Assembly (NCBI GenBank): GCA_022561055.1
Contig: JADFRY010000001.1
Span: forward strand, 57,025 to 121,024
DNA length: 64,000 nucleotides
DNA from: Nanobdellota archaeon
GTDB lineage: Archaea > Nanobdellota > Nanobdellia > Pacearchaeales > GW2011-AR1
Direction: 5' to 3'
Position 1 is the first letter of the stretch. Each line of letters opens with the position of its first letter. Below the pieces are notes generated by a model that was not told the DNA's origin, did no database searches, and was given only the letters and a program-made list of their open reading frames with translations. Both the position numbers and the translations under genes were made by a program. Positions 46,676-63,005 of the stretch are shown piece by piece.

Positions 46676-48565
46676 ATGGGGGTAAGAAGAATGATTAGAT
46701 CGTTTTGGAGTAGGAAAGGACAAATTAGTTTTTTTATAATTCTTGCTATTGTAATAGTTGCGGCAGTAGTCATCTTCTTTGCTTTGAGGACAAATATTTT
46801 TGTTACAGGGATTGACCCTGAGTTTGTGCCTATTTATAATTTGTATGGGGAATGTGTGAAGCAGGAAACTGAAAATGCTCTGAATTTGTTAGGGACCCAA
46901 GGAGGCAAGATTGATGTTGGAGAGTATGTTCCTGGAAGTGAGTATGCTCCTTTTTCATCGCATTTGAATTTCTTAGGTTTTCCTATACCTTACTGGTATT
47001 ATGTTTCTGGAAACAATTTAATTAAAGAAAATGTTCCTTCAAGAAATGATATGGAGCAAGAGATTTCAGAGTTTTTAGAAGAGAGAATAAACGAGTGTGA
47101 TTTTAGTAATTTTTATGAGCAGGGATTTTTTATTGAGTTAGATGAAAGTCCAAGAGTTAAAACTAAAATAGAAGATAATAAGGTTAGTGTTGATGTTAGT
47201 GCTAGTGTTGTTGTTTTCAGAGAAGATAAAAGCGCGAGGAAAAATTTGCACCGAGTTGTGGTAGAAAGCAAGATTGGTAAGTTTCACAAAATTGCAAGAG
47301 AGATTTATGACAAGGAAAAAAACGAGGCGTTTTTGGAAGAGTATGCTGTCGATGTTTTAAGACTTTACGCTCCCGTTGACGGTGTTGAAGTTCAGTGCAG
47401 TCCGAAAATTTGGAAGACGCAAGAGGTTGTTAATAATTTACAAGAAGGATTAGAAGCAAACATTAGGGCATTAAAACTTAAAGGAAAATATTATAATTTA
47501 AATGAGAAAGAGGATGAGTATTTTGTAATTGACCATAATGTTGACGAGTCAGTTAATTTTTTATATTTAAGAAATTGGCCAAGTAAAATTGAAATTACTC
47601 CTGCTAATGAGGAATTAATGATTGCAGAACCAATTGGAAACCAACAAGGTTTAGGAATTTTAGGTTTTTGTTATGTTCCTTATCATTTTGTTTACGACGT
47701 AAGCTTTCCTGTTTTGATACAAATACATGATGGATTAGAAATTTTTCAGTTCCCTATTTCTGTGATTATTGATAATAATCTGCCTAGAGAAGCAGAACTT
47801 TTGAGTTTTGCAGAGGAAGAGGATATTGATATATGTAGTTTTAAGGAAGGGAATGTGCAGGTTTATACTTTTGATAGTAATTTGAATCCTGTCGAGGCTG
47901 AAATAAGTTATAAGTGCTTTGATAGTATTTGCAGGCTTGGAGAAACAGAGAGCTCTGGGGGAGATGCTGTTCTTAATACAAATATTCCTTTATGTGTTAA
48001 TGGTTATATAATTGCCAAAGCCGAGGGATTTGTAGAGAAGAAGCAGTTGTTTTCATCCAATTCTGAAATAATTGCCGACGTTATCCTTGATAGAGAATAT
48101 GAAGTTGAGGTTGAATTAAGAGTCGCTGGGAAAGAGAAAAAAAATACAACTGCGATTGTTCATTTTAGCGGAGAAGACGGAACAGCAAGTGTAGTTTTGC
48201 CTGAAAATAATAAAGTTAAGTTGAAAGAAGGGCTATATGATATAGATGTTTTTGTTTATGGAGATTCGAGTGTTGTGATTCCAAGTTCTAGGAAAAGGCA
48301 ATGTTTTGAAGTGTCAAAAGGAGGTTTGTTTAGCTTTTTTGGGGCAACTAAAGAAGAGTGTATTGATATTGAAATCCCTGAAGTAAGAATAGATTACGCG
48401 TTGACAGGAGGAGGAAAAACAAATACTTATATTCTGGAATCTGAGTTGAAAAAAGGCAGAGTGGTTATAGATGTTAGTGAATTGCCTAAACCAAATTCAC
48501 TTGAACAGTTGCAATATAATTACGAAATATTTAATAGTCTAGGAGTTGAGATGGTGTTTATATGA
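46676..48565 (+). CDS. large extracellular protein with pilin-like class III signal (SRKGQ|ISFFIILAIVIV)
   Basis: 629 aa; N-terminal KGQ + hydrophobic helix; ATGA overlap with downstream giant ORF. Confidence 0.5.
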   Translation: MGVRRMIRSFWSRKGQISFFIILAIVIVAAVVIFFALRTNIFVTGIDPEFVPIYNLYGECVKQETENALNLLGTQGGKIDVGEYVPGSEYAPFSSHLNFLGFPIPYWYYVSGNNLIKENVPSRNDMEQEISEFLEERINECDFSNFYEQGFFIELDESPRVKTKIEDNKVSVDVSASVVVFREDKSARKNLHRVVVESKIGKFHKIAREIYDKEKNEAFLEEYAVDVLRLYAPVDGVEVQCSPKIWKTQEVVNNLQEGLEANIRALKLKGKYYNLNEKEDEYFVIDHNVDESVNFLYLRNWPSKIEITPANEELMIAEPIGNQQGLGILGFCYVPYHFVYDVSFPVLIQIHDGLEIFQFPISVIIDNNLPREAELLSFAEEEDIDICSFKEGNVQVYTFDSNLNPVEAEISYKCFDSICRLGETESSGGDAVLNTNIPLCVNGYIIAKAEGFVEKKQLFSSNSEIIADVILDREYEVEVELRVAGKEKKNTTAIVHFSGEDGTASVVLPENNKVKLKEGLYDIDVFVYGDSSVVIPSSRKRQCFEVSKGGLFSFFGATKEECIDIEIPEVRIDYALTGGGKTNTYILESELKKGRVVIDVSELPKPNSLEQLQYNYEIFNSLGVEMVFI

Positions 48566-51500
48566 TAAAGAAAAGGTTTGGAGAATTGTTTTTGGTTGTT
48601 GGAATTTTGATTTTTATAATTGCAGGTTTGGAATTTAGTGTTGCGCAGGTTGGTTCAGGTTATTCTTATTCTGATAAGGAATTTTCTGGGAGTAATAGAG
48701 GCAGTGCAAGTTTTGTCAATTATGGTGCACCTCCTGATTTTCAGAAATATTACTCTTCAGAGGGCAGACTCAGTACTTATTTTCCAGTTTTAGCCGATAG
48801 AGATAGTTGTTTTGCGAGGCAGGATATTTTATTACAAGTTGCTCCTGTCGGTTGTCAGCCAGCTGTTGTAAGAAGCGATTTATTAGCAGAGCAAAATGTT
48901 CCGGTATTTTGTCAGCTTGATGCTATAAAAGTGAATCCTTTGTTAGATATTAAGCAGATAAGGAGTATAAGGTTTAGGGGAGATTACCCTAAGGAAGTTG
49001 TCGGAGTTGGTTTTCATCCTGCGAGAGCTGCTTTGAGGACAAGAGATAAACTTTTAGGCAGTCCATTAATAAATAATATTGGATATGTCGTTGTTGTTTT
49101 GAAGAGAAACCCAAATGAAGAAGAATTGCCGAATTTTATTAATTTTACCTTAAGTGCGAGACTCGATTATTATTCTGGAAATGCTTTAGGAATTGGAAAA
49201 AGTGAGTTTTTGCTTAGGGAAGTTACAGACGCTGAATGGAAGTCTGAAAGGAATAGACAAAGTTTCTTTAAAGGACAATATTTTGCGAGGCTTATCGATG
49301 CAGACCCTAATTTTGCAACTATTGCTATTTATCATGGAGAAAGGAAAATTTCGACAACAAGAGTTCAAAGGGGAAAGTCTTCAGAAGATATTTATGTGCC
49401 TGGCCAATATTGCCAGGTAGCTTTGAAGCTTTCTTATGATGGTTTTGTTTCTGCAGACAAGATTGCTAAGATTCGGATTGATGATGAGATCATTGATGTT
49501 TATCGAGGAAGCAGGTTTCTGAATGGCAAATGTCAAGTAAAAAGTATAAATGGGGATAGTACGAATGGAACCGTAGAAATTTCTTGTGGCGGTTCAAGAT
49601 CATTTACTTTAGGATTACAAGCAAGATTCTTGAAAGTTGGAGACCTTGTTAATTACACGAAAGGAGATAGAGATTTATGGGAGATTACAGAAATTAATGA
49701 AAAGGAGAGACAATATAATATAACAAAATATTCTAATGAAGGTGTAATAGAAAGTAAGGTTGTCAATATTAGTGATGTTTTTCCAGAGGTTTCTGATGTT
49801 TTATTTGAGGCAAGATATACTGGCGAGACAAAAGAATATTTCAAAAAGGCAATTGATAGTTATGAGGAAGTAGTCGATAGTTATGCGCGTGAAAAAAAAT
49901 CTGAGGCACGTGATATTGAAGGAACACCAACTTATGGAGAGCTAGCTTTGGGAAAAGCAATTGAGCTTGCGTCAGATTTTAAGAAAGAAGCAACCGAAGC
50001 CCGTTTAATAGAGAAATTTATTGATGTTTATCCTGACGCCGATAATAGTTCTTTTTATACTAGCAAATTAAATGAATTATATACGAAAGACAGCAGCTTG
50101 GCAGGAACAGTTATCGATATAGACAATGACTTTAAGACAATTAAGTTGCTGGAGATTAGGATTCCTGCGAAAAGGTCGAGTGCCGAGTTTGTTTTAGGTG
50201 TTGAAAGAATAACTTTGCAGAGTGGAGAGAGTCATTCATTTATTAGTATAGGAGATAAAAATGGCTTAGTCATTATTGAAAAGGTAGAGTTTGATAAGGT
50301 TAAGGTAACTTCTTATTGTGGGGAAGATGATAGAGGTAATAGAGAGTGGAGTAAATCAATCAGAATAGGAGAGAGTGAAACTTCTTGCGGGGTTAGTTTG
50401 AGATTGGTCGATGTTAATCTTGAAGAGTTTGCAAGAGTAAAAATTAGCCCTGTCGTTAGAACGACTAGCGAGACTGAGTTTACGGTCGGTGTTGGAATCG
50501 AGAAAAGAGCAATCAAGCTTAGTCCTGACAAGACAAAAGAAAAGATTGAGAATTTGAACAAGAGCATTAAGAAGTGGGAGTCAATTTCAAATAATTTAGG
50601 TGATGTTGTCAGAGGTTTGAAAGGAGCTTGCTTTGCAACTGCCGGAGTTTTAACTGTGAAGAATTTCTTTACAGGATTTAGTGGAGAATCTTTGGCAAGA
50701 CAGAAAGTTATGCGAGGTTCTGACGGCTGGACTGAATGGTGTAAAGATAGACTGAAACCAAGAGGACAGTATGATACTTTAACTCAATGTTATAATGATA
50801 AAGCTTCACAAATAAAAAAAGATGTTGATGCATATGCGAAAGCAATCTCTCAATCAAATAAAAAGATGAAAGCAATTGAGGATGATAGTATAATTTCTAG
50901 TGGAGGATTTTTTGGAGGAGATAGTATTGATATCGATGAAGCTAAGAAAGATTTAGTTAAAGTATTAGAGAGTGAATGTTCGAGTGTTAGTACAGGACTG
51001 GGCGGAGAAAATGGTGATATCGGAAAGTTAATTGCTGGTGTAAAACTAGAAGATTTAGGATATCAACAATTAAGAGACATGTATTTTAATTGTCTTGTCG
51101 TTAAAGGAGGCCAGCTTTCTAGTGGTGGTGTAGGATTGAACAGGGCTAATGAAGACTTGAAGTTAATCGGTGAAAGGATTTTGGAGAGGAAAGAAACTTC
51201 ACAAGTTAGAGAAGGTCTCGGTGAATCATTAAAAAGAACTGGTTTAGAAGGTTTTAGAATTGTGTCTTATGGAGGGGAAAATGCAATAAGAGGCGAGTAT
51301 TATGGGGGGATTTTGAAACCAGGAGATATAAATAATGTTGATATTAATAATAATACACCTGCTCAAGTTATAACTTATGACGGGGATCCTTATCTTATAA
51401 TTTTACAAAAAACTAGTGTGGAGAATTATAGACCAGAGAAGATTTATGCATTGACGCGAGAGAGTAATTATAAAGAGGCCACTCTTGTCGAGGGCGCGCT

Positions 51501-53937
51501 TGCTTCAAAGATTAGGAGAATCCATATTTATAGAAAAATCGATGCTGGTTCTTATAATAATAGATTTGCCAAGGGCGAGGATGTTGTGAGGTATTATGAG
51601 AGAGAGCCATATAAAGGGACGCCGGCAATTGTGCCTATAGATGTTGATGAGGGATGGTATGTTGCAACAAAACAAACATTGCCTGGTTTCGGAAAAATAA
51701 AAGCATTTGAATCGTCAGGAAGACCGGTTAGTTTCTGGGTTTGTAATATCATGCAAGATAAAAAAGTAGGATTTTTCTCTCCTGGTTTTGGCGATGATAA
51801 ATGTGTGCAGTTTAATATGAATACAGGACAGCCTTTGGATAAATTCCCTGGTTTGAGCGAGCGAAAGACAAGACAGTTAGTCGATAGAGCAGTTCAGGCA
51901 TTAGAGGATGCAGCCAAAGAGACAGGGAAGAAAAAGGGAGAGCTTGTTAATATTCTTGGGAGACGTCTTAGTGTTGGAGGTTTTGCTGCGAGTATTCCTG
52001 GAACGCAATGCCAAGATTTTATGAGTCCTGAAGATTGTTTGAAGTTATTTAATGTTTGCGACCCTGTGATATGCCCAAGTTCGAGATGCAATTTGGGTGG
52101 TACATATTATGTTTCAGATGTTATTCAATCTGGCGTCATAGGGAGTGTTTTGTTATGCTTGCCTAATTTTAAAGAAGGTATACTAGTGCCTGTTTGTTTG
52201 ACAGGAATTAAAGCTGGAATCGATGGTTATTTGTCAATTTTGAAATCTCATCAGCAATGTTTGCAAGAGAATTTGGAAACCGGAAGAACAATAGGGATTT
52301 GTGATTTAGTAACTTCTGTTTATACTTGTGAGTTTTTCTGGAGACAGGCGGCGCCAGTCGCAAATGTTTTGTTACCGAAAGCTGTTGAGTTTCTTTACAC
52401 AGGCGGACAAGGACAGGCGAGAGGCGGAGGAGAGTATTTAACTGTTCAGACTGCCTGGGAAAATGCGCAAGACTCTGTTAATTTCTTTACACAAGAATAT
52501 GCAGCTAATTCTTTAGAAGCGTTTAGAGTCAGGTCTATTGCAGAAGCAGGCACAACTTTGTGTAGGGCTTTTGTTTCTGTTAAAGGCCCTAAGTCGTTTG
52601 AAACACTAATTGAGCCAGATTCGCCGCCGCAGTTCCATGCATGGTTTAGTTCAATACCATTTAGCGACGCGACTGTTCCTGCCACGGCTCAGTATAAAGT
52701 ATTTTATCATATTTTTTCAGGGGATGATTCTGGAGTTGCATTTAGCGTTTATTTGAAAGACCCTCCTGAAACTTCATTCTATTACACGACTCCGACGTTA
52801 ATTGTTGCTTCAGGGTTTGCACCGAGAGGACAGTTTGCTACAGAGACGAGAGACTTTACTGCGCCGGAAGGTTATAAGCAGTTATGCGTGAGGATAAATA
52901 ACAAGGAAGAGTGCGGGTTTAAACAAGTATCTTCTAGTTTCGCTCTTAATATTATTAGAGATGAATTTGTGAGTGATGAAATTGAAAGGGGAGATATAAC
53001 AAGAGAGAGTGAATGTATTTCAGGCAAATTGAATGTTGCGGCTTTGTTAAACCCAAATATCCAAGAGGCAGCACAAGAAGCAATTGACCCTGCCGTTTAT
53101 AATAGAGGAGTAGTTAGGATTTGTGCGACTGATAATCCAGGAAAGGGAACAGAGCCAGAGAGGTTTGTGGATGCTGGTTATTGCGATGACCAGAGAGTAA
53201 GATGCTGGGTCGATATGAATAGTGTTGAAAGAGCTCTTACAGTTGATAATATTGGAGAAAAAGAAAAAACTATAGAAAAATTAGAAGCAAGGCAGAAAGA
53301 GCTTTTGCAAGAAGGAAAGGAAAAAGAGTTTTATAGTGAGACGAAAGCTAGTGAGGTTAGTGAAAGGTTAAGAAGAGAGAAACTTTTCAGAGTCAGCAAG
53401 GATAATGTCGAAGGTAGAATTGATGAGATTGATAATGATTTAGAAAAAGTATTTTTTAATTATCAGAGGGCAGAGTTTCTTTTGTTGAAAGGAGATGTTT
53501 ATGCTAAGGTTGCTAAGAATTTATTGACAAAATTGCAGGGAGTTTTGGAGATAGATCCTTCTGGGGGAGTCGAGGATAAAAAAGAAAAAGAAGAAAATAT
53601 AGAATTGCTTTTTTCTGAGAGATTTAGTCTTAGAAATAGTGAAGATGATTTAATTATACGTTATAAAAAGTATCAGGATAGTACATTAGATAATACAGAG
53701 CTATTTGTTCCTAAGGATACTAAAGTTTTGGTTTATAAGACTAAGAATAATGTTGTTGCAGATTTGAGTAGAACAATTGATTTTTCTGGAAAAGGGGAGT
53801 CTGTCATAGCTGTGAAAGAAAATTCGATGTATTTACGGATTTTGGATGATTTTGATTTAGTTAGGTTAGACAATGCGAAGATTTTATTTAGCGAAGATGG
53901 TAGTCTTAGCCTAAAGTTTGATGGTTCTGGTAACTAA
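48562..53937 (+). CDS. giant extracellular/cell-surface protein (1791 aa), N-terminal signal-anchor, Cys-rich segment, C-terminal coiled coil
   Basis: Uninterrupted 5.4-kb ORF; N-terminal 'LFLVVGILIFIIAGLEF'; 'CDPVICPSSRCNLGG' Cys cluster. Confidence 0.6.
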   Translation: MIKKRFGELFLVVGILIFIIAGLEFSVAQVGSGYSYSDKEFSGSNRGSASFVNYGAPPDFQKYYSSEGRLSTYFPVLADRDSCFARQDILLQVAPVGCQPAVVRSDLLAEQNVPVFCQLDAIKVNPLLDIKQIRSIRFRGDYPKEVVGVGFHPARAALRTRDKLLGSPLINNIGYVVVVLKRNPNEEELPNFINFTLSARLDYYSGNALGIGKSEFLLREVTDAEWKSERNRQSFFKGQYFARLIDADPNFATIAIYHGERKISTTRVQRGKSSEDIYVPGQYCQVALKLSYDGFVSADKIAKIRIDDEIIDVYRGSRFLNGKCQVKSINGDSTNGTVEISCGGSRSFTLGLQARFLKVGDLVNYTKGDRDLWEITEINEKERQYNITKYSNEGVIESKVVNISDVFPEVSDVLFEARYTGETKEYFKKAIDSYEEVVDSYAREKKSEARDIEGTPTYGELALGKAIELASDFKKEATEARLIEKFIDVYPDADNSSFYTSKLNELYTKDSSLAGTVIDIDNDFKTIKLLEIRIPAKRSSAEFVLGVERITLQSGESHSFISIGDKNGLVIIEKVEFDKVKVTSYCGEDDRGNREWSKSIRIGESETSCGVSLRLVDVNLEEFARVKISPVVRTTSETEFTVGVGIEKRAIKLSPDKTKEKIENLNKSIKKWESISNNLGDVVRGLKGACFATAGVLTVKNFFTGFSGESLARQKVMRGSDGWTEWCKDRLKPRGQYDTLTQCYNDKASQIKKDVDAYAKAISQSNKKMKAIEDDSIISSGGFFGGDSIDIDEAKKDLVKVLESECSSVSTGLGGENGDIGKLIAGVKLEDLGYQQLRDMYFNCLVVKGGQLSSGGVGLNRANEDLKLIGERILERKETSQVREGLGESLKRTGLEGFRIVSYGGENAIRGEYYGGILKPGDINNVDINNNTPAQVITYDGDPYLIILQKTSVENYRPEKIYALTRESNYKEATLVEGALASKIRRIHIYRKIDAGSYNNRFAKGEDVVRYYEREPYKGTPAIVPIDVDEGWYVATKQTLPGFGKIKAFESSGRPVSFWVCNIMQDKKVGFFSPGFGDDKCVQFNMNTGQPLDKFPGLSERKTRQLVDRAVQALEDAAKETGKKKGELVNILGRRLSVGGFAASIPGTQCQDFMSPEDCLKLFNVCDPVICPSSRCNLGGTYYVSDVIQSGVIGSVLLCLPNFKEGILVPVCLTGIKAGIDGYLSILKSHQQCLQENLETGRTIGICDLVTSVYTCEFFWRQAAPVANVLLPKAVEFLYTGGQGQARGGGEYLTVQTAWENAQDSVNFFTQEYAANSLEAFRVRSIAEAGTTLCRAFVSVKGPKSFETLIEPDSPPQFHAWFSSIPFSDATVPATAQYKVFYHIFSGDDSGVAFSVYLKDPPETSFYYTTPTLIVASGFAPRGQFATETRDFTAPEGYKQLCVRINNKEECGFKQVSSSFALNIIRDEFVSDEIERGDITRESECISGKLNVAALLNPNIQEAAQEAIDPAVYNRGVVRICATDNPGKGTEPERFVDAGYCDDQRVRCWVDMNSVERALTVDNIGEKEKTIEKLEARQKELLQEGKEKEFYSETKASEVSERLRREKLFRVSKDNVEGRIDEIDNDLEKVFFNYQRAEFLLLKGDVYAKVAKNLLTKLQGVLEIDPSGGVEDKKEKEENIELLFSERFSLRNSEDDLIIRYKKYQDSTLDNTELFVPKDTKVLVYKTKNNVVADLSRTIDFSGKGESVIAVKENSMYLRILDDFDLVRLDNAKILFSEDGSLSLKFDGSGN

Positions 53938-54043
53938 TGAGTGCGGGGACTAAGTTTTATAGCGGAAGTTAAAAGCGGGGAGAATTGTCTGGGTTTTTTT
54001 GTTTAGGAAATAAATATAAATAACTCTAAGTTAAAGGTTTGAT

Positions 54044-54931
54044 ATGGATATAAGAAAAATAGGCGTTCATAACGGGTATTTTCATGCTGATGATGTTTTT
54101 GCAGTAGCAGTACTAAAATTAATTTATCCCAAAGCGAAAGTTGTTCGAAGTAGGGACCTGGGTATTTTAAAAAAATGTGATGTTCGTATTGACGTTGGTA
54201 TGAAGTATGATCCTAAAAAAGGAGATTTTGATCACCACCAAGGAAATATGAAAGAATCAAGGGAGAATGGAGTTCCCTATGCTTCGTTCGGTTTAGTATG
54301 GAAACATTTTGGAAAAAAACTTGTAGGTAACAACGAAGTCTGGGAGTATATTGACAAAAGATTTGTTCAACCAATTGATGCAAATGATACCGGTCACAAT
54401 ATATATGAGGCACAGATTGATCCACATACTACTTCAAAGGTCGTTGATGTGTTTAATCCTAGCTGGTTACAACAAGACGAAAAATTATATGATGAAGGGT
54501 TTTTTGAGATCTTACCCTTTGCTATGACACTTGTACAAAAAGAAATACAAAAAGCGGATGGAATCGTGAAGGCAAGAAGCATAGTTAGAGAAAAAATAAA
54601 AGAACAGGATGCAGAAAAGAAAGGTTTTTTATTTTTAGAAAAACATATTCCATGGAAAGAAGTTGTTATTAATGAGACAAGTGATGTCAAATATGTTGTT
54701 TCTTATCATGAAGGATATAGCACATGGGGTGTTGAAGCAGTTCGAAAAGAATTAGTCAGCTTTGAGAATCGAAAAGATTTACCCAAAGAGTGGGGTGGAT
54801 TAGCAAATGAAAAACTTGCCAGCGTTACTGGAATCAAAGATGCAGTGTTTTGTCATAAATCCCTTTTCGTTATTTCGGCGCGAAGTAAGGAAAGCGCTCT
54901 AAAATTAGTAAAAAAAGCCTTAAAAGACTAA
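54044..54931 (+). CDS. MYG1/UPF0160 family metal-dependent hydrolase
   Basis: 'GVHNGYFHADDVFAVAVL' and 'GDFDHHQG' signature. Confidence 0.6.
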   Translation: MDIRKIGVHNGYFHADDVFAVAVLKLIYPKAKVVRSRDLGILKKCDVRIDVGMKYDPKKGDFDHHQGNMKESRENGVPYASFGLVWKHFGKKLVGNNEVWEYIDKRFVQPIDANDTGHNIYEAQIDPHTTSKVVDVFNPSWLQQDEKLYDEGFFEILPFAMTLVQKEIQKADGIVKARSIVREKIKEQDAEKKGFLFLEKHIPWKEVVINETSDVKYVVSYHEGYSTWGVEAVRKELVSFENRKDLPKEWGGLANEKLASVTGIKDAVFCHKSLFVISARSKESALKLVKKALKD

Positions 54932-55128
54932 ATAATCACACGATTATTTATTTCAAAGATCGTACCGCATTACCCCCCATAGTTAAAAGCGGTCTGAGTG
55001 CGGGGACTAGGATCCTAAATACAAACTTTTTAGAAAAAAGTTTCTATGAGTTCAAAAACTATACTTGGAACTTCGTTCTTATTAGCAAGCTACAAAATAG
55101 TCCAGCAATATTGCTTTGCAATATTGAA

Positions 55129-55213
55129 TGCGGGAACTAGGATTCGAACCTAGGTAGGCACTAAGCACACTGCGGCCTAAACGCAGCCCGTTTGACCACT
55201 CCGGCATCCCCGC
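55129..55213 (-). tRNA. tRNA-Leu (anticodon TAG), class II long variable arm
   Basis: GCGGGGA..TTCCCGC acceptor, anticodon stem CTGCG/CGCAG loop TTTAGGC, variable arm ~15 nt, T arm CTAGG-TTCGAAT-CCTAG. Confidence 0.8.
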
Positions 55214-55256: not shown

Positions 55257-55898
55257 TTATCCTTTAACTATGCTTTTAATAAAACCCAAACTAATTCGTT
55301 CAGGTCTAGTAGTGCTACCTAGTTTGTTATATTTTAGAGTCATATTTGCTTCAAAATATCCTTCTAAGGTATTTTCACAAACTATTGTAAATTCAGTATT
55401 TATGTTTGGCTCCATCATTTTGTTGAAATCTTTTTTACCACAATTAGTTATCTCAATGTTTTTTAACTCTAGATCTCCTTCTCCTGCTTGCACCACCTCA
55501 AGAGTTATTTGATTTTTACTTACAGTAAAGGCATTAACATAGAAAGGCGGACCTATGACTGCTAGATTTCCGAAAAGTTTTCCATTTTTACTGATGAATG
55601 GATATCCTTCTAGCATTTCTCCTTTTTTATTGATTATTGCTGTTAGTTCTTTTGAAACTCCAACAGTACATACAATTTCCCAATAATTTCCATCTAGATT
55701 AGGTATTTTAGTTATTGTTGAGTTTGAAGGGTCTTCACATGTTTCATAGAGGGAGTTTAATTCTCTCGGCTCTGATTCAATATATTCTTGAACGTCAGAT
55801 ATTTCTTCCAGGTTAGTTGAGCCAGTTAATAGGAAATAACCTACGACACCTAAAATTAGTAATAGAATAATAACAAAAATGATTATCACCTTTTCCAT
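55257..55898 (-). CDS. secreted hypothetical protein with N-terminal signal anchor
   Basis: 'IIIFVIILLLILGVVGYFLL' then soluble domain. Confidence 0.4.
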   Translation of the reverse strand: MEKVIIIFVIILLLILGVVGYFLLTGSTNLEEISDVQEYIESEPRELNSLYETCEDPSNSTITKIPNLDGNYWEIVCTVGVSKELTAIINKKGEMLEGYPFISKNGKLFGNLAVIGPPFYVNAFTVSKNQITLEVVQAGEGDLELKNIEITNCGKKDFNKMMEPNINTEFTIVCENTLEGYFEANMTLKYNKLGSTTRPERISLGFIKSIVKG

Positions 55899-55933: not shown

Positions 55934-56866
55934 TTAGGAGGTCTTAGCCTTTCCTTTTGCCTCTATCTCTTTGAGCTTATCTTCAATTTCTAACTTTTCT
56001 ATGAGTTCTTTGTACCTGTTTCTGATTGTGACTTCTGTTATTCCTGCGACATCTGCGACTTCTCTCTGGGTTTTCTTTTCACTGTTAAGGAGGGCAGCAA
56101 CATATAGAGCGGCAGCCGCAATTCCAGCAGGACCTCTCCCTGATGTTAGTTCTGAAACGTCTGCTTTTTTTAATATTCTAAGGGCTTCATTTTGGGCTTT
56201 TGGAGATAGATGCAAGATTGAAGAGAACCTTGAGATGTAGTCTTTTGGTGAAGATGGTTTTACTTTTATTCCGAGTTTTCTTATGATAAACCTGTATGTT
56301 CTGCCAATTTCTTTTCTTGGAACGTCAGATGCTGTAGCGATTTCATCTAGAGTTCTTGGGATATTGTATGAACGACAAGCTGCGTAGATGCAAGCAGCAA
56401 TAACAGATTCCATTGAGCGTCCTCGGACAAGACCTCTTTGCAAAACAAAGTTGTAGACTCTGGCAGATTCATCTCTTACGACAGAAGGCAAGTTGAGGAA
56501 AGAGGCGACTCTTCTTAATTCAGCCATTGCAAGTCTTAAGTTTCTTTCTATTGATGTAGAGACTCTTTCTTGCCATTTTTTTAGTCTTAGAAATTTGCGA
56601 GTTTGACCAGATTCTAATTTGTAAATATCAGAGATTTCGCCGACGTTTGTTGTGAGTCCCTTATCAAATTTTTGTATTGATAGTGGTGCTCCGCCGCGTC
56701 CTTTTTTTTCATTTTTGTCAAATTGGCCACCACCTTCTTGGCCAGTGTCAACCATTTTTTCTTCAATAAGAAGACCGCATTCATTACAGATTATTTCGCC
56801 CCTTTGCTCATCGTGAGTAAGATGTATGCTTTCGCATTCCGGGCATCTTTTTATATAGTCGCTCAT
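55934..56866 (-). CDS. tfb: transcription initiation factor IIB (TFB)
   Basis: N-terminal Zn ribbon 'CPECES..CNECG', two cyclin-fold repeats, C-terminal HTH. Confidence 0.9.
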   Translation of the reverse strand: MSDYIKRCPECESIHLTHDEQRGEIICNECGLLIEEKMVDTGQEGGGQFDKNEKKGRGGAPLSIQKFDKGLTTNVGEISDIYKLESGQTRKFLRLKKWQERVSTSIERNLRLAMAELRRVASFLNLPSVVRDESARVYNFVLQRGLVRGRSMESVIAACIYAACRSYNIPRTLDEIATASDVPRKEIGRTYRFIIRKLGIKVKPSSPKDYISRFSSILHLSPKAQNEALRILKKADVSELTSGRGPAGIAAAALYVAALLNSEKKTQREVADVAGITEVTIRNRYKELIEKLEIEDKLKEIEAKGKAKTS

Positions 56867-56964: not shown

Positions 56965-57924
56965 TTAATAACTAGGAAGGCACATTAATTCGCCGGTAAA
57001 ACAAGAAGTGCAAGTTTGTTTGCTTTCTTGATCTTCAATATATTCACAATAAGAAGAGTCTTTTTTTATTATTGCTAGATTTCTGTAACAATCTGCTGAT
57101 ATAATCCCTGTAGTTATTTGTTCACATAGTTCTGGGTTTTCAGTCTTTTTTGCTATGAATCCTACACATATTTCTTGACTTTCTTTATATTTTAGTTCTT
57201 TACATTCCTCTACATTGAGTTTTCTTTTTGCTGTTATCTCACTTCTTTGGACTCTTTCTAAGTCTAGGTAGCAGGCCATTTGATCGATCTCCGTATTATT
57301 ATGGCAGTAAGATGGTCCAGCTAAGAGTATACTTACTTTTTTTGTGCAAAATGTTTTTTCTCTTTCATTATTTATCTTATAACAAAGATCGATTTCATGA
57401 GACCTCAAGGCTACTAAGAGATAACAACCGTCTTTTCTACCAGTATATTCTATTAATTCACATATCTCTGGATCTTCTAAATGTCGTGCTATGTGTTGGT
57501 AGCATATTTCTTTTAATGCATAAGGGTCATGTTCTAGTCCATCTTCTATTTTGTTGCAAGCACGATAATCTCTTGTCTTTTTTCCTATTTCTTCATAACA
57601 GAGGGATTGAGAACCAATTTTAAGCTGTTCACATTTCTTTAGATCTTGAGAGTTGATAGCAGAGTATATTTTACAGAGCTCTATCGACCATTGATCTTCA
57701 GAAAAGCCTTCACACTCTTCGAAAGAAATTTGGAGATCCTCAGAATCTATTGTTTCTAGATAACAAATTTCTTTTTCTCCAAGAGGCAGGGAATTACATT
57801 CAGCTTCTAGGTATTCAGATGCCGAATTGCTTATACCTATATTGTTGCTGATTAGAAAGAAAGATGTTAATCCTATGGCTAACAATCCCACTAATACTAG
57901 GATAATTATTAGTATACCTTTCAT
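56965..57924 (-). CDS. secreted cysteine-rich tandem-repeat protein
   Basis: Signal anchor then ~10 repeats of ~28 aa with spacing C..ICY/CY..I..D pattern. Confidence 0.45.
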   Translation of the reverse strand: MKGILIIILVLVGLLAIGLTSFFLISNNIGISNSASEYLEAECNSLPLGEKEICYLETIDSEDLQISFEECEGFSEDQWSIELCKIYSAINSQDLKKCEQLKIGSQSLCYEEIGKKTRDYRACNKIEDGLEHDPYALKEICYQHIARHLEDPEICELIEYTGRKDGCYLLVALRSHEIDLCYKINNEREKTFCTKKVSILLAGPSYCHNNTEIDQMACYLDLERVQRSEITAKRKLNVEECKELKYKESQEICVGFIAKKTENPELCEQITTGIISADCYRNLAIIKKDSSYCEYIEDQESKQTCTSCFTGELMCLPSY

Positions 57925-62760: not shown

Positions 62761-62832
62761 GCGCGGGTAGCCAAGTGGTAAGGCAGGGGCCTGCAGAGCC
62801 TCGATGCGAGGGTTCGAATCCCTCTCCGCGCT
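62761..62832 (+). tRNA. tRNA-Cys (anticodon GCA), discriminator U73
   Basis: GCGCGGG acceptor, anticodon stem GGGGC/GCCTC loop CTGCAGA, T arm GAGGG-TTCGAAT-CCCTC, 3' ..CCGCGC-T. Confidence 0.8.
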
Positions 62833-63005
62833 TTTTCTAGATTCGAACAGTTTGGGGGGTTTGAATCATCAGAGAATTGAAGATTCTCTGAGCCTCTTCG
62901 TGCTCTCTGGGCGCTTTGGAGTCCCTGTAAAATACCATATTTCTAAACAGGAAAATGCTCTAAAATAGAATATTAGAAAAAGTCCGTTTAATCTATTTAA
63001 TCGCT

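Follow-up and report, generated by a model that had tools for sequence, protein, structure and literature searches.

A MYG1-family gene bracketed by tRNA-Leu tail repeats, and recurrent tail-copy modules at tRNA 3' flanks, in a Pacearchaeota-type archaeon and its relatives

Results and Discussion

Layout of the tRNA-Leu locus

We analysed a stretch of 64,000 nucleotides (nt) from contig JADFRY010000001.1 of a Nanobdellota archaeon (the window), in which a single hydrolase gene of the MYG1/UPF0160 family lies between short direct repeats that derive from the 3' end of the neighbouring tRNA-Leu(TAG) gene. The open reading frames (ORFs) of the window include those for archaeal TFB, ribosomal protein S8e, an LSM protein, RadA and SRP54/FtsY, which are core genes. 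The window is core chromosome of a low-G+C DPANN archaeon of the Pacearchaeota type (genome ~35% G+C) and not an obvious mobile element. Relatives of the MYG1 protein and of the 1791-aa giant protein encoded beside it carry the names Pacearchaeota, Woesearchaeota or Nanoarchaeota. The comparison used loci from related genomes and metagenome-assembled genomes, numbered L002 to L031. A copy of the tail of a tRNA in its own flank is called an echo. The features of the locus are listed below, with the strand where one is assigned.

53938–53954: R1a, TGAGTGCGGGGACTAAG, 16/17 identical to R1b; directly 3' of the stop codon of the 1791-aa gene, left junction of the MYG1 insert and outermost echo
53959–53978: R2a, ATAG[CGGAAG]TTAAAAGCGG, 4 nt inside the left junction
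53993–54043, plus strand: T7 run followed by the A/T-rich, promoter-like region of MYG1, from alignment to L002
54044–54931, plus strand: MYG1/UPF0160-family gene, 295 aa, intact; full-length match to Pfam PF03690, E = 7e-77
54931–54948, plus strand: small hairpin AATAATC-ACAC-GATTATT, then T-rich, just 3' of the MYG1 stop, as read from the sequence; possibly a 3' end signal
54979–54992: R2b, ATAGTTAAAAGCGG, just inside the right junction and 2 nt short of R1b
54995–55018: R1b, echo of the tRNA-Leu 3' end that takes in part of the T-loop as well as 4 trailer nt; 20/24 identical to 55125–55148
55012–55128: module X, between R1b and tRNA-Leu, with hairpins P_c, P_b and P_a and a conserved block
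55019–55047: hairpin P_c, five pairs with compensatory double changes
55068–55078: hairpin P_b, within X
55082–55104: conserved block TTAGCAAGCTACAAAATAGTCCA, unique in the window
55106–55126: hairpin P_a, within X
55129–55213, minus strand: tRNA-Leu(TAG), from ARAGORN, Rfam (tRNA, 53.6 bits) and the tRNAs of relatives; source of the repeated 3'-end sequence

Sequence and significance of the repeats

The R1 core GAGTGCGGGGACTARG is present at 53939–53954 and 54996–55011 and grows by one base leftward to TGAGTGCGGGGACTA[A/G]G (53938–53954 and 54995–55011), which gives 15 nt of exact match or 17 nt with one mismatch (A/G). The R2 core GTTAAAAGCGG, at 53968–53978 and 54982–54992, lengthens to the 12-nt exact match AGTTAAAAGCGG and, when a 6-nt indel is allowed, to the R2a and R2b intervals listed above. 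All copies are direct and follow the order R1-R2-gene-R2-R1. An original prediction, made from the sequence alone, had described this nested layout and read it as possible integration scars; its coordinates for R1 and R2 were all correct. The prediction had also called the stretch TGCGGGGACTAGGATCC (54999–55015) a two-mismatch copy of the 3'-terminal 17 nt of tRNA-Leu (TGCGGGAACTAGGATTC, 55129–55145, minus strand), and this was confirmed.

A repeat finder placed 53938–53961, 54995–55018 and 55125–55148 in register, the third copy being the tRNA-Leu(TAG) 3' end with 4 nt of its trailer; R1a and R1b repeat the final ~13–17 nt of this tRNA together with those 4 nt. The likeness of R1a to R1b (16/17 over the first 17 nt) exceeds that of either to the tRNA, and the 17 nt of R1 include 4 nt (TGAG) that lie outside the tRNA and are particular to the window genome. 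R2a continues into GCGGGGA (53974–53980), a third copy of the acceptor-strand heptamer. The acceptor stem of tRNA-Leu(TAG) has G6-U67 in the window and G-C in the echoes and in the tRNAs of relatives. The relatives are without a third copy at the R1a position, and three copies occur elsewhere only in L020.

Chance matches in A/T-rich intergenic DNA are a negligible explanation of the repeats. When the two flanks were shuffled 5000 times, a shared exact word of at least 15 nt never appeared and one of at least 12 nt appeared in 5 shuffles. With up to 3 mismatches allowed, R1 gave 4 matches against 0.29 expected (0/100 shuffles reached 4), and the tRNA 17-mer gave 2 against 0.04. The G+C content of R1 is high for a 35% G+C genome, R1 matches the adjoining tRNA in the right orientation, and the pattern recurs in related genomes. 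Only R2 offers anything to the chance explanation: taken alone across the whole window it is marginal, with 3 matches against 0.93 expected and 6/100 shuffles reaching 3. R2 is nevertheless significant because each of its copies lies within 2–13 nt of an R1 copy. Taken together, the shuffles and the comparison with relatives rule out a chance origin, which the prediction had named as a possible refutation.

The MYG1 unit is an insertion relative to orthologous loci

Orthologous loci were found via the conserved giant protein family, whose identity is 35–62% over all loci compared. In L009 (giant protein 53% identical), the giant-gene stop is followed by 14 nt, ATACGGGGATTAGGTCCTAAA, X, tRNA-Leu(TAG) and TFB. 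ATACGGGGATTAGGTCCTAAA is an R1-like echo homologous to R1b and its right flank, and ~175 nt past it begins the run tRNA-Leu(TAG), TFB, S8e, LSM and metallo-beta-lactamase gene, whose order is that of the window. Removal of 53955–55011 from the window restores the L009 arrangement (stop codon, R1, ATCCTAAA...). The giant gene leads to tRNA-Leu after 70 nt in L008 (62%) and after 21 nt in L031 (52%). In L019, TFB and tRNA-Leu are followed by an 86-nt interval closing with an exact echo and by the giant gene end. MYG1 is absent between the giant gene and tRNA-Leu in all four loci (L009, L008, L031 and L019). These results therefore indicate that MYG1 is an insertion of ~1.04 kb bracketed by a 17-nt duplication, with R1 at both ends. 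An old resident MYG1 that was lost from the relatives by R1 x R1 deletion would be less parsimonious.

The prediction had asked whether related genomes lack 53939–55128. The distant relatives do lack MYG1, but the echo and X are present in L009 and L019; what belongs to the MYG1 insertion alone is R1a and R2. None of the four loci carried MYG1 without the repeats, the arrangement that the prediction had named as a refutation of integration scars.

The closest MYG1 homologue is in L002 (69% identity) and three others are at 51%; all four stand in unrelated gene contexts in which R1 and R2 are absent. The sequence at 53994–54022 aligns with the region 5' of the L002 gene (28-nt local alignment, score 31; 300 shuffles gave 16.7 +/- 3.0, maximum 33). 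We infer from this likeness that 53993–54043 is the MYG1 promoter and therefore that MYG1 probably arrived with its own promoter.

The tRNA-Leu echo and module X in relatives

A conserved 35-nt piece of the tRNA, used to scan species-representative genomes, gave 17 loci, and the conserved block of interval X, used on metagenomes, gave 1 locus. A direct partial copy of the tRNA-Leu(TAG) 3' end was found 86–265 nt downstream in ~10 genomes (L009, L015, L019, L020 with two copies, L024, L026, L027, L028, L030 and the window). R1b does not stem from the MYG1 event, because a homologous echo and X are found in these ~10 related genomes. It is ancestral and closes off, on the side away from the tRNA, the conserved and hairpin-rich module X of ~115 nt. 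The proposal of integration scars thus stands in part: tRNA-derived repeats do bracket a gene missing from the four orthologous loci, but R1b was there beforehand.

X occurs in two forms. The 'W' form is that of the window, L028, L030 and part of L009, and is shortened in L019. The 'C' module is a piece of ~50 nt with two hairpins that sits exactly between CTAGG and ATTCGAA of the echoed T-arm, and it is carried at tRNA-Leu by L009, L015, L024, L026 and L027. X stays with the tRNA whatever its far neighbour is, be it the giant gene, a PIF1-WYL helicase (L028) or divergent genes (L015, L026). Echoes often share the lineage-specific variant of their own tRNA (GCGGAGA in L015, GCGGGAA in L020 and GATTAG in L030).

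These properties raise the alternative that R1b, and perhaps R1a and R2, are functional RNA or regulatory parts rather than scars, with MYG1 merely adjacent. X and the echo would then form a tRNA-linked small RNA, co-transcribed or antisense, whose closing stem and 3' tail reuse tRNA 3' sequence. X of the window is 88% identical to that of L028 and ~71% to those of L009 and L030, a conservation above that of the orthologous proteins of the window and L009 (50–70%). The hairpins show compensatory changes. GGACTA (55004–55009) can pair with TAGTCC (55098–55103), and this helix becomes GGATTA/TAGTCC in L009 and GGATTA/TAATTC in L030; protein-bound DNA palindromes would covary likewise. In regards to folding, the L024 tRNA-Leu and L028 tRNA-Ile modules, on the tRNA strand, gave z = -3.5 and -4.7, each with two or three hairpins, a 3' tail left free and a closing stem in which the echo takes part. 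Window-type X is only modestly more stable than its shuffles (z = -1.4 to -2.2; +0.3 in L030), and L026 and L027 lack the closing stem. Homology links the hairpin modules of different tRNAs, as described below. No Rfam 15 family matched X, as only tRNAs were hit at E <= 10 in the window region and at E <= 5 for the L026, L028 and L031 modules. The tally of G-U against A-C pairs, counted by hand to decide the transcribed strand, was 5 to 2 and not significant. The RNA alternative also does not account for R2 or for the duplication of R1 around a gene absent in relatives. As an explanation of the whole locus we consider it unlikely, although it may well hold for X and R1b.

Several other identities of X and the echoes were rejected. 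X is not protein-coding because L027 is frameshifted relative to L026. It is not a dispersed repeat: its conserved block is unique, and nhmmer profiles of the W and C forms found no further convincing copies in the window. Duplication of the tRNA upstream region holds in L019 only (score 45 vs 13.5 +/- 2.2) and not in nine other loci. A hidden, split or intron-containing tRNA, or a split tRNA 3' half, at R1a or R1b was rejected since just 13–24 nt are tRNA-like and ARAGORN and Rfam see the annotated tRNA only; no second 5' fragment of tRNA-Leu was found elsewhere in the window. C/D or H/ACA guide RNAs were set aside by eye, the boxes not being at the right positions, as was a retroelement primer-binding site, no TGG (CCA complement) preceding the echo.

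Some further resemblances were recorded around X. The sequence GAACTCATAGAAA is common to X (55040–55053) and the 3' coding end of TFB (55995–56008, minus strand; K-E-L-I-E-K), and a resemblance of this type recurs in L019. This 13-nt match is probably coincidental, though it may also date from an old rearrangement that involved the TFB end and the flank of the tRNA. In L019 a ~35-nt piece of X (GGTTGCTGRACTCATAGAAC...GTTGTA) occurs twice (1040–1086 and 1203–1244), of which one copy stops 1 nt short of the 5' end of tRNA-Leu and the other immediately precedes the echo. In L029 a comparable hairpin with GTAGA adjoins the 5' end of tRNA-Leu (nhmmer E = 0.03). The L018 tRNA-Leu(TAG) (1790–1890) carries a ~30-nt insertion beside the anticodon loop, presumably a canonical intron, and ~1 kb away (L018:746–786) is a weak match to the C-module profile (E = 0.0016).

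The 3' flank of tRNA-Leu is a variable spot

The tRNA 3' flank is a variable spot among the relatives. Past the echo, L030 (11473–12865) carries an AbiEii-like nucleotidyltransferase and a winged helix-turn-helix protein, as well as an older C-like module, now degenerate, at 1.7 kb from the tRNA, and L028 (3441–4994) carries the PIF1-like helicase with a WYL domain. In L022 (4370–7490), 3.1 kb of small ORFs separate the tRNA from a distal copy, TGCGAGAACTACG, that abuts the TFB stop codon. L029 and L030 have a 264-aa gene in common at the flank. tRNA-Leu(TAG) occurs in either orientation, though always between the convergent giant and TFB genes (L012, L016, L020 and L022 compared with the window, L008, L009, L019 and L029–L031). 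L016 has an inverted partial copy, AATCCCCGC, in the interval from TFB to the tRNA. The orientation differences and the inverted copy suggest inversions at the tRNA-tail sequence.

Echoes at other tRNA genes

We ran ARAGORN on all comparison loci and sought the last 13 nt of each tRNA 20–320 nt downstream on the same strand. A copy of its own tail with up to 2 mismatches followed 11 of the 44 tRNAs, 7 of them exactly, while the two controls (upstream, and downstream on the opposite strand) gave 0/44 each. A homologous two-hairpin module of ~50 nt often lies between tRNA and copy, with a spacing of 70–270 nt. At the tRNA-Ile of L028 (5860–6060, minus strand), an identical 47-nt repeat, made of 13 nt of tRNA and 34 nt of trailer, flanks a 49-nt hairpin module that is homologous to the C module of tRNA-Leu. 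At the tRNA-Cys of L031 (13423–13680), an 89-nt unit that starts with the last 13 nt of the tRNA is repeated 2.15 times downstream. The repeats of L027 and L026 (40 and 25 nt) also include trailer.

The tRNA-Cys of the window (62761–62832) is followed at 62833–62915 by TTTTCTAGATTCGAAC, the T-arm-like GGGGGTTTGAATC, the hairpin CAGAGAAT-TGAAG-ATTCTCTG and GCCTCTTCGTGCT. GCCTCTTCGTGCT matches the last 13 nt of this tRNA at 10/13 positions (echo at 62892–62904). This flank has the architecture seen at tRNA-Leu. Since copies of the 3' end follow tRNA-Ile and tRNA-Cys too, they imply a process or function that is general to the tRNA 3' flanks of the lineage, and they do not prove classical integrase scars.

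These arrangements could have arisen with no dedicated recombinase, if unequal recombination or template switching adds and removes short tandem units made of tRNA 3' end, trailer and hairpins. MYG1 would then have been caught up in such an array or have come in with a long duplication of its target, and the likeness of R1 to the tRNA would be what the target happened to hold. The L031 unit, the 47-nt repeat around the L028 module and the trailer-containing repeats of L027 and L026 all agree with an array. So do the lineage-specific tRNA variants in the echoes of L015, L020 and L030, which are expected from concerted evolution, as well as the four non-tRNA bases of R1 and the failure to find an integrase. 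Other observations disagree: the MYG1 unit is dissimilar to X and hence no duplicate from an array, the presence of R2 at each end of the insert is unaccounted for, and target duplications of the transposase type are short and of fixed length. Repeated insertion exactly at tRNA-tail sequence in several genomes moreover suggests targeting. We therefore treat the array explanation as possible but rather doubtful.

A more speculative proposal, to which we would give somewhat poor odds, is that the echo modules are an undescribed lineage-wide system at tRNA 3' flanks in DPANN archaea of the Pacearchaeota/Woesearchaeota type. Each module may comprise a T-loop-like motif, 1–3 covarying hairpins and a copy of the last 13–20 nt of its own tRNA. 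The system may consist of mini tRNA-restoring mobile elements or of a conserved decoy landing pad, which may capture genes such as MYG1, the AbiE-like pair and the PIF1-WYL helicase and leave the tRNA unharmed. It may equally be a new class of tRNA-linked small RNA that mimics the tRNA tail.

Proposed course of the MYG1 insertion

The explanation we prefer, with a probability of about 0.5, is that a circular DNA recombined Campbell-style at an attachment (att)-like tRNA-tail site, stacked on an older module. The locus would have two layers. The first, old and shared, would be tRNA-Leu, module X and the tail echo at the end of X, and the second, found in the window genome only, the MYG1 unit that entered at the echo and duplicated it. 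The pre-insertion locus would have read giant-gene stop, R1, X and tRNA-Leu. A DNA of ~1.04 kb with MYG1, its promoter and its 3' hairpin would have entered exactly at R1, leaving R1 at each junction (15 nt identical, then A or G tied to the right flank). The A/G difference at the right edge of R1, linked to its own right flank, is expected if the crossover lay to its left.

The circle would have carried the site R2-TC-R1-TTTT-R2, that is ...CCCCCC-ATAGTTAAAAGCGG-TC-[R1]-TTTT-ATAG(CGGAAG)TTAAAAGCGG-GGAG..., with the core between two copies of a 14-nt motif, and the recombinase would have been encoded elsewhere. R1 would be the att-like crossover core. The two R2 copies, possibly arm-type binding sites, would flank it on the circle and come to lie just inside both junctions. 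Recombination at the core yields R1-R2-gene-R2-R1, and therefore the nesting would need one event only. The prediction had considered traces of successive events, but the nesting of R1 and R2 can be explained by a single R2-R1-R2 circle.

A considerable number of observations weigh against such an integration. No integrase lies between the repeats, where MYG1 (PF03690) is the only gene, and four Pfam batches gave no integrase, transposase or Cas1 in the insert or in the 44 large ORFs of the window, as the prediction had said of the integrase. Three scans for viral contigs with the site or a MYG1 relative were empty. The insert shows no composition anomaly relative to its neighbours (G+C 0.34–0.35, the same as the flanks), and MYG1 is a host-type gene widespread in Pacearchaeota and Nanoarchaeota metagenome-assembled genomes. 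The genome-specific, non-tRNA TGAG is more in line with duplicated host target sequence than with an exogenous attP. Elsewhere the repeats span 13–47 nt, often with trailer, which is unusual for a single integrase with a fixed core; together with some true tandem arrays, they resemble unequal recombination or template switching. The small modules of 49–130 nt are too short as free circular elements. The polarity of insertion versus deletion comes from parsimony over fairly distant genomes, with the giant protein at 41–62% identity in the four cited loci. We set the probability no higher than about one half because no recombinase is known, four bases of R1 are genome-specific and not from the tRNA, and the repeat lengths are array-like.

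The cargo looks like a host gene because its G+C is that of its neighbours, its putative promoter is homologous to that of a 69%-identical relative, and it has neither mobile-element genes nor a viral match (no PHROG viral protein matched).

Comparison with known systems

Partial copies of a tRNA 3' end at the far end of inserted DNA are a known signature of archaeal tRNA-targeting integrative elements (PMC9897764). An example is PYG1 of Pyrococcus yayanosii, a 21.4-kb island with 44-bp tRNA-Gln repeats on both sides (PMC9897764, citing Williams 2002 and Reiter 1989). The present locus resembles these elements in having a whole tRNA gene at one end and a direct partial 3' copy at the far end of the insert, in being empty in relatives and in having several copies stacked at one tRNA. 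It differs in that the insert is 1.04 kb with one host-like gene, no integrase and no foreign composition, and in that the repeat is 15–17 nt including non-tRNA bases and is a secondary echo 130 nt from the tRNA. Of the features of an element moved by a tyrosine recombinase, the locus thus has the tRNA 3'-part repeats at both ends, although the outer pair are echoes and the tRNA lies 130 nt further. It has neither an integrase inside next to an att site nor foreign-looking cargo.

Integrase-less att-flanked cis-mobilizable elements (CIMEs) in Streptococcus accrete in tandem with integrative and conjugative elements (ICEs) at one att site. The locus shares two features with CIMEs, att-like repeats at both ends and no recombinase inside, and its units are likewise arranged in tandem by the target (tRNA, X, R1b, MYG1, R1a). 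An element of this kind mobilised in trans would also need a cognate recombinase elsewhere in the genome, of which the analysis covered the 64-kb window. Unlike CIMEs, X measures only ~115 nt and shows the conservation between genomes of a functional element. To our knowledge, there is no cognate autonomous element or integrase for this lineage.

Casposons insert at tRNA 3' ends with 14–15-bp target duplications. The tRNA 3' end as target, the direct duplication and the tandem copies are similar, but the repeat length varies here, and a casposon was rejected because the ends at 53955... and ...54994 lack terminal inverted repeats and neither cas1 nor polB was found. A miniature inverted-repeat transposable element (MITE) with inverted terminal repeats was rejected likewise, none being present. 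Palindrome-associated transposable elements (PATEs) are miniature palindromic elements of the IS200/IS605 type, and IS200/IS605 insertions do not duplicate 13–47 nt of target. The ~50-nt two-hairpin module resembles PATEs and other MITEs in its related copies by different tRNAs, each just 3' of a T-loop-like TTCRAAT; it differs in that the 64-kb window contains no other module copies, and no Y1 transposase was seen.

Integron attC sites have paired inverse-core and core motifs (RYYYAAC ... GTTRRRY). The GTTAAAA of R2 is core-like, but with no inverse core in 54932–54981 and no IntI an integron gene cassette was rejected. A viral or plasmid origin was also rejected, the viral-contig scans being empty. 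Non-canonical tRNA introns and split tRNA genes are features of archaea such as Nanoarchaeum, the Thermoproteales and ARMAN. The position of the two-hairpin module at the T-loop/T-stem junction and its intron-like presence or absence (L009 vs the window, L028) are reminiscent of them. Here, in contrast, the fragment has no 5' tRNA part, a complete intron-less tRNA lies just upstream, tRNA models match nothing, and no bulge-helix-bulge motif was made out.

A gene between tRNA-tail repeats is, by itself, commonplace evidence of former recombination at a tRNA gene, and the MYG1 insertion is a modest variation on this known theme. We know of almost nothing on gene movement in DPANN archaea, with their tiny genomes and poorly conserved gene order, and the locus offers a clean case with one gene, two intact junctions and a pre-insertion sequence that can be inferred. 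The lineage-wide echo modules are more interesting and unexplained: a conserved architecture recurs 3' of several tRNAs and is unmatched by RNA-family or mobile-element libraries. If they are a recombination platform or mini-elements, they would explain the scrambling of gene order around tRNA genes in these lineages; if they are RNA, they would be a new tRNA-associated class.

Neighbouring genes

The whole tRNA-Leu/TFB neighbourhood gathers lineage-specific genes. Two genes without family match, at 55257–55898 (213 aa) and 56965–57924 (319 aa; the protein is Cys-rich and has a signal anchor), break up the run of tRNA-Leu, TFB and S8e that is intact in L009 and L031. On the other side, a 629-aa gene and the 1791-aa giant gene (46676–53937) overlap by 4 nt, apparently as an operon. 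Neither protein has a Pfam domain, and both are kept across hundreds of Pacearchaeota and Nanoarchaeota assemblies at 35–62% identity. The giant protein is cysteine-rich and has an N-terminal segment resembling a signal anchor.

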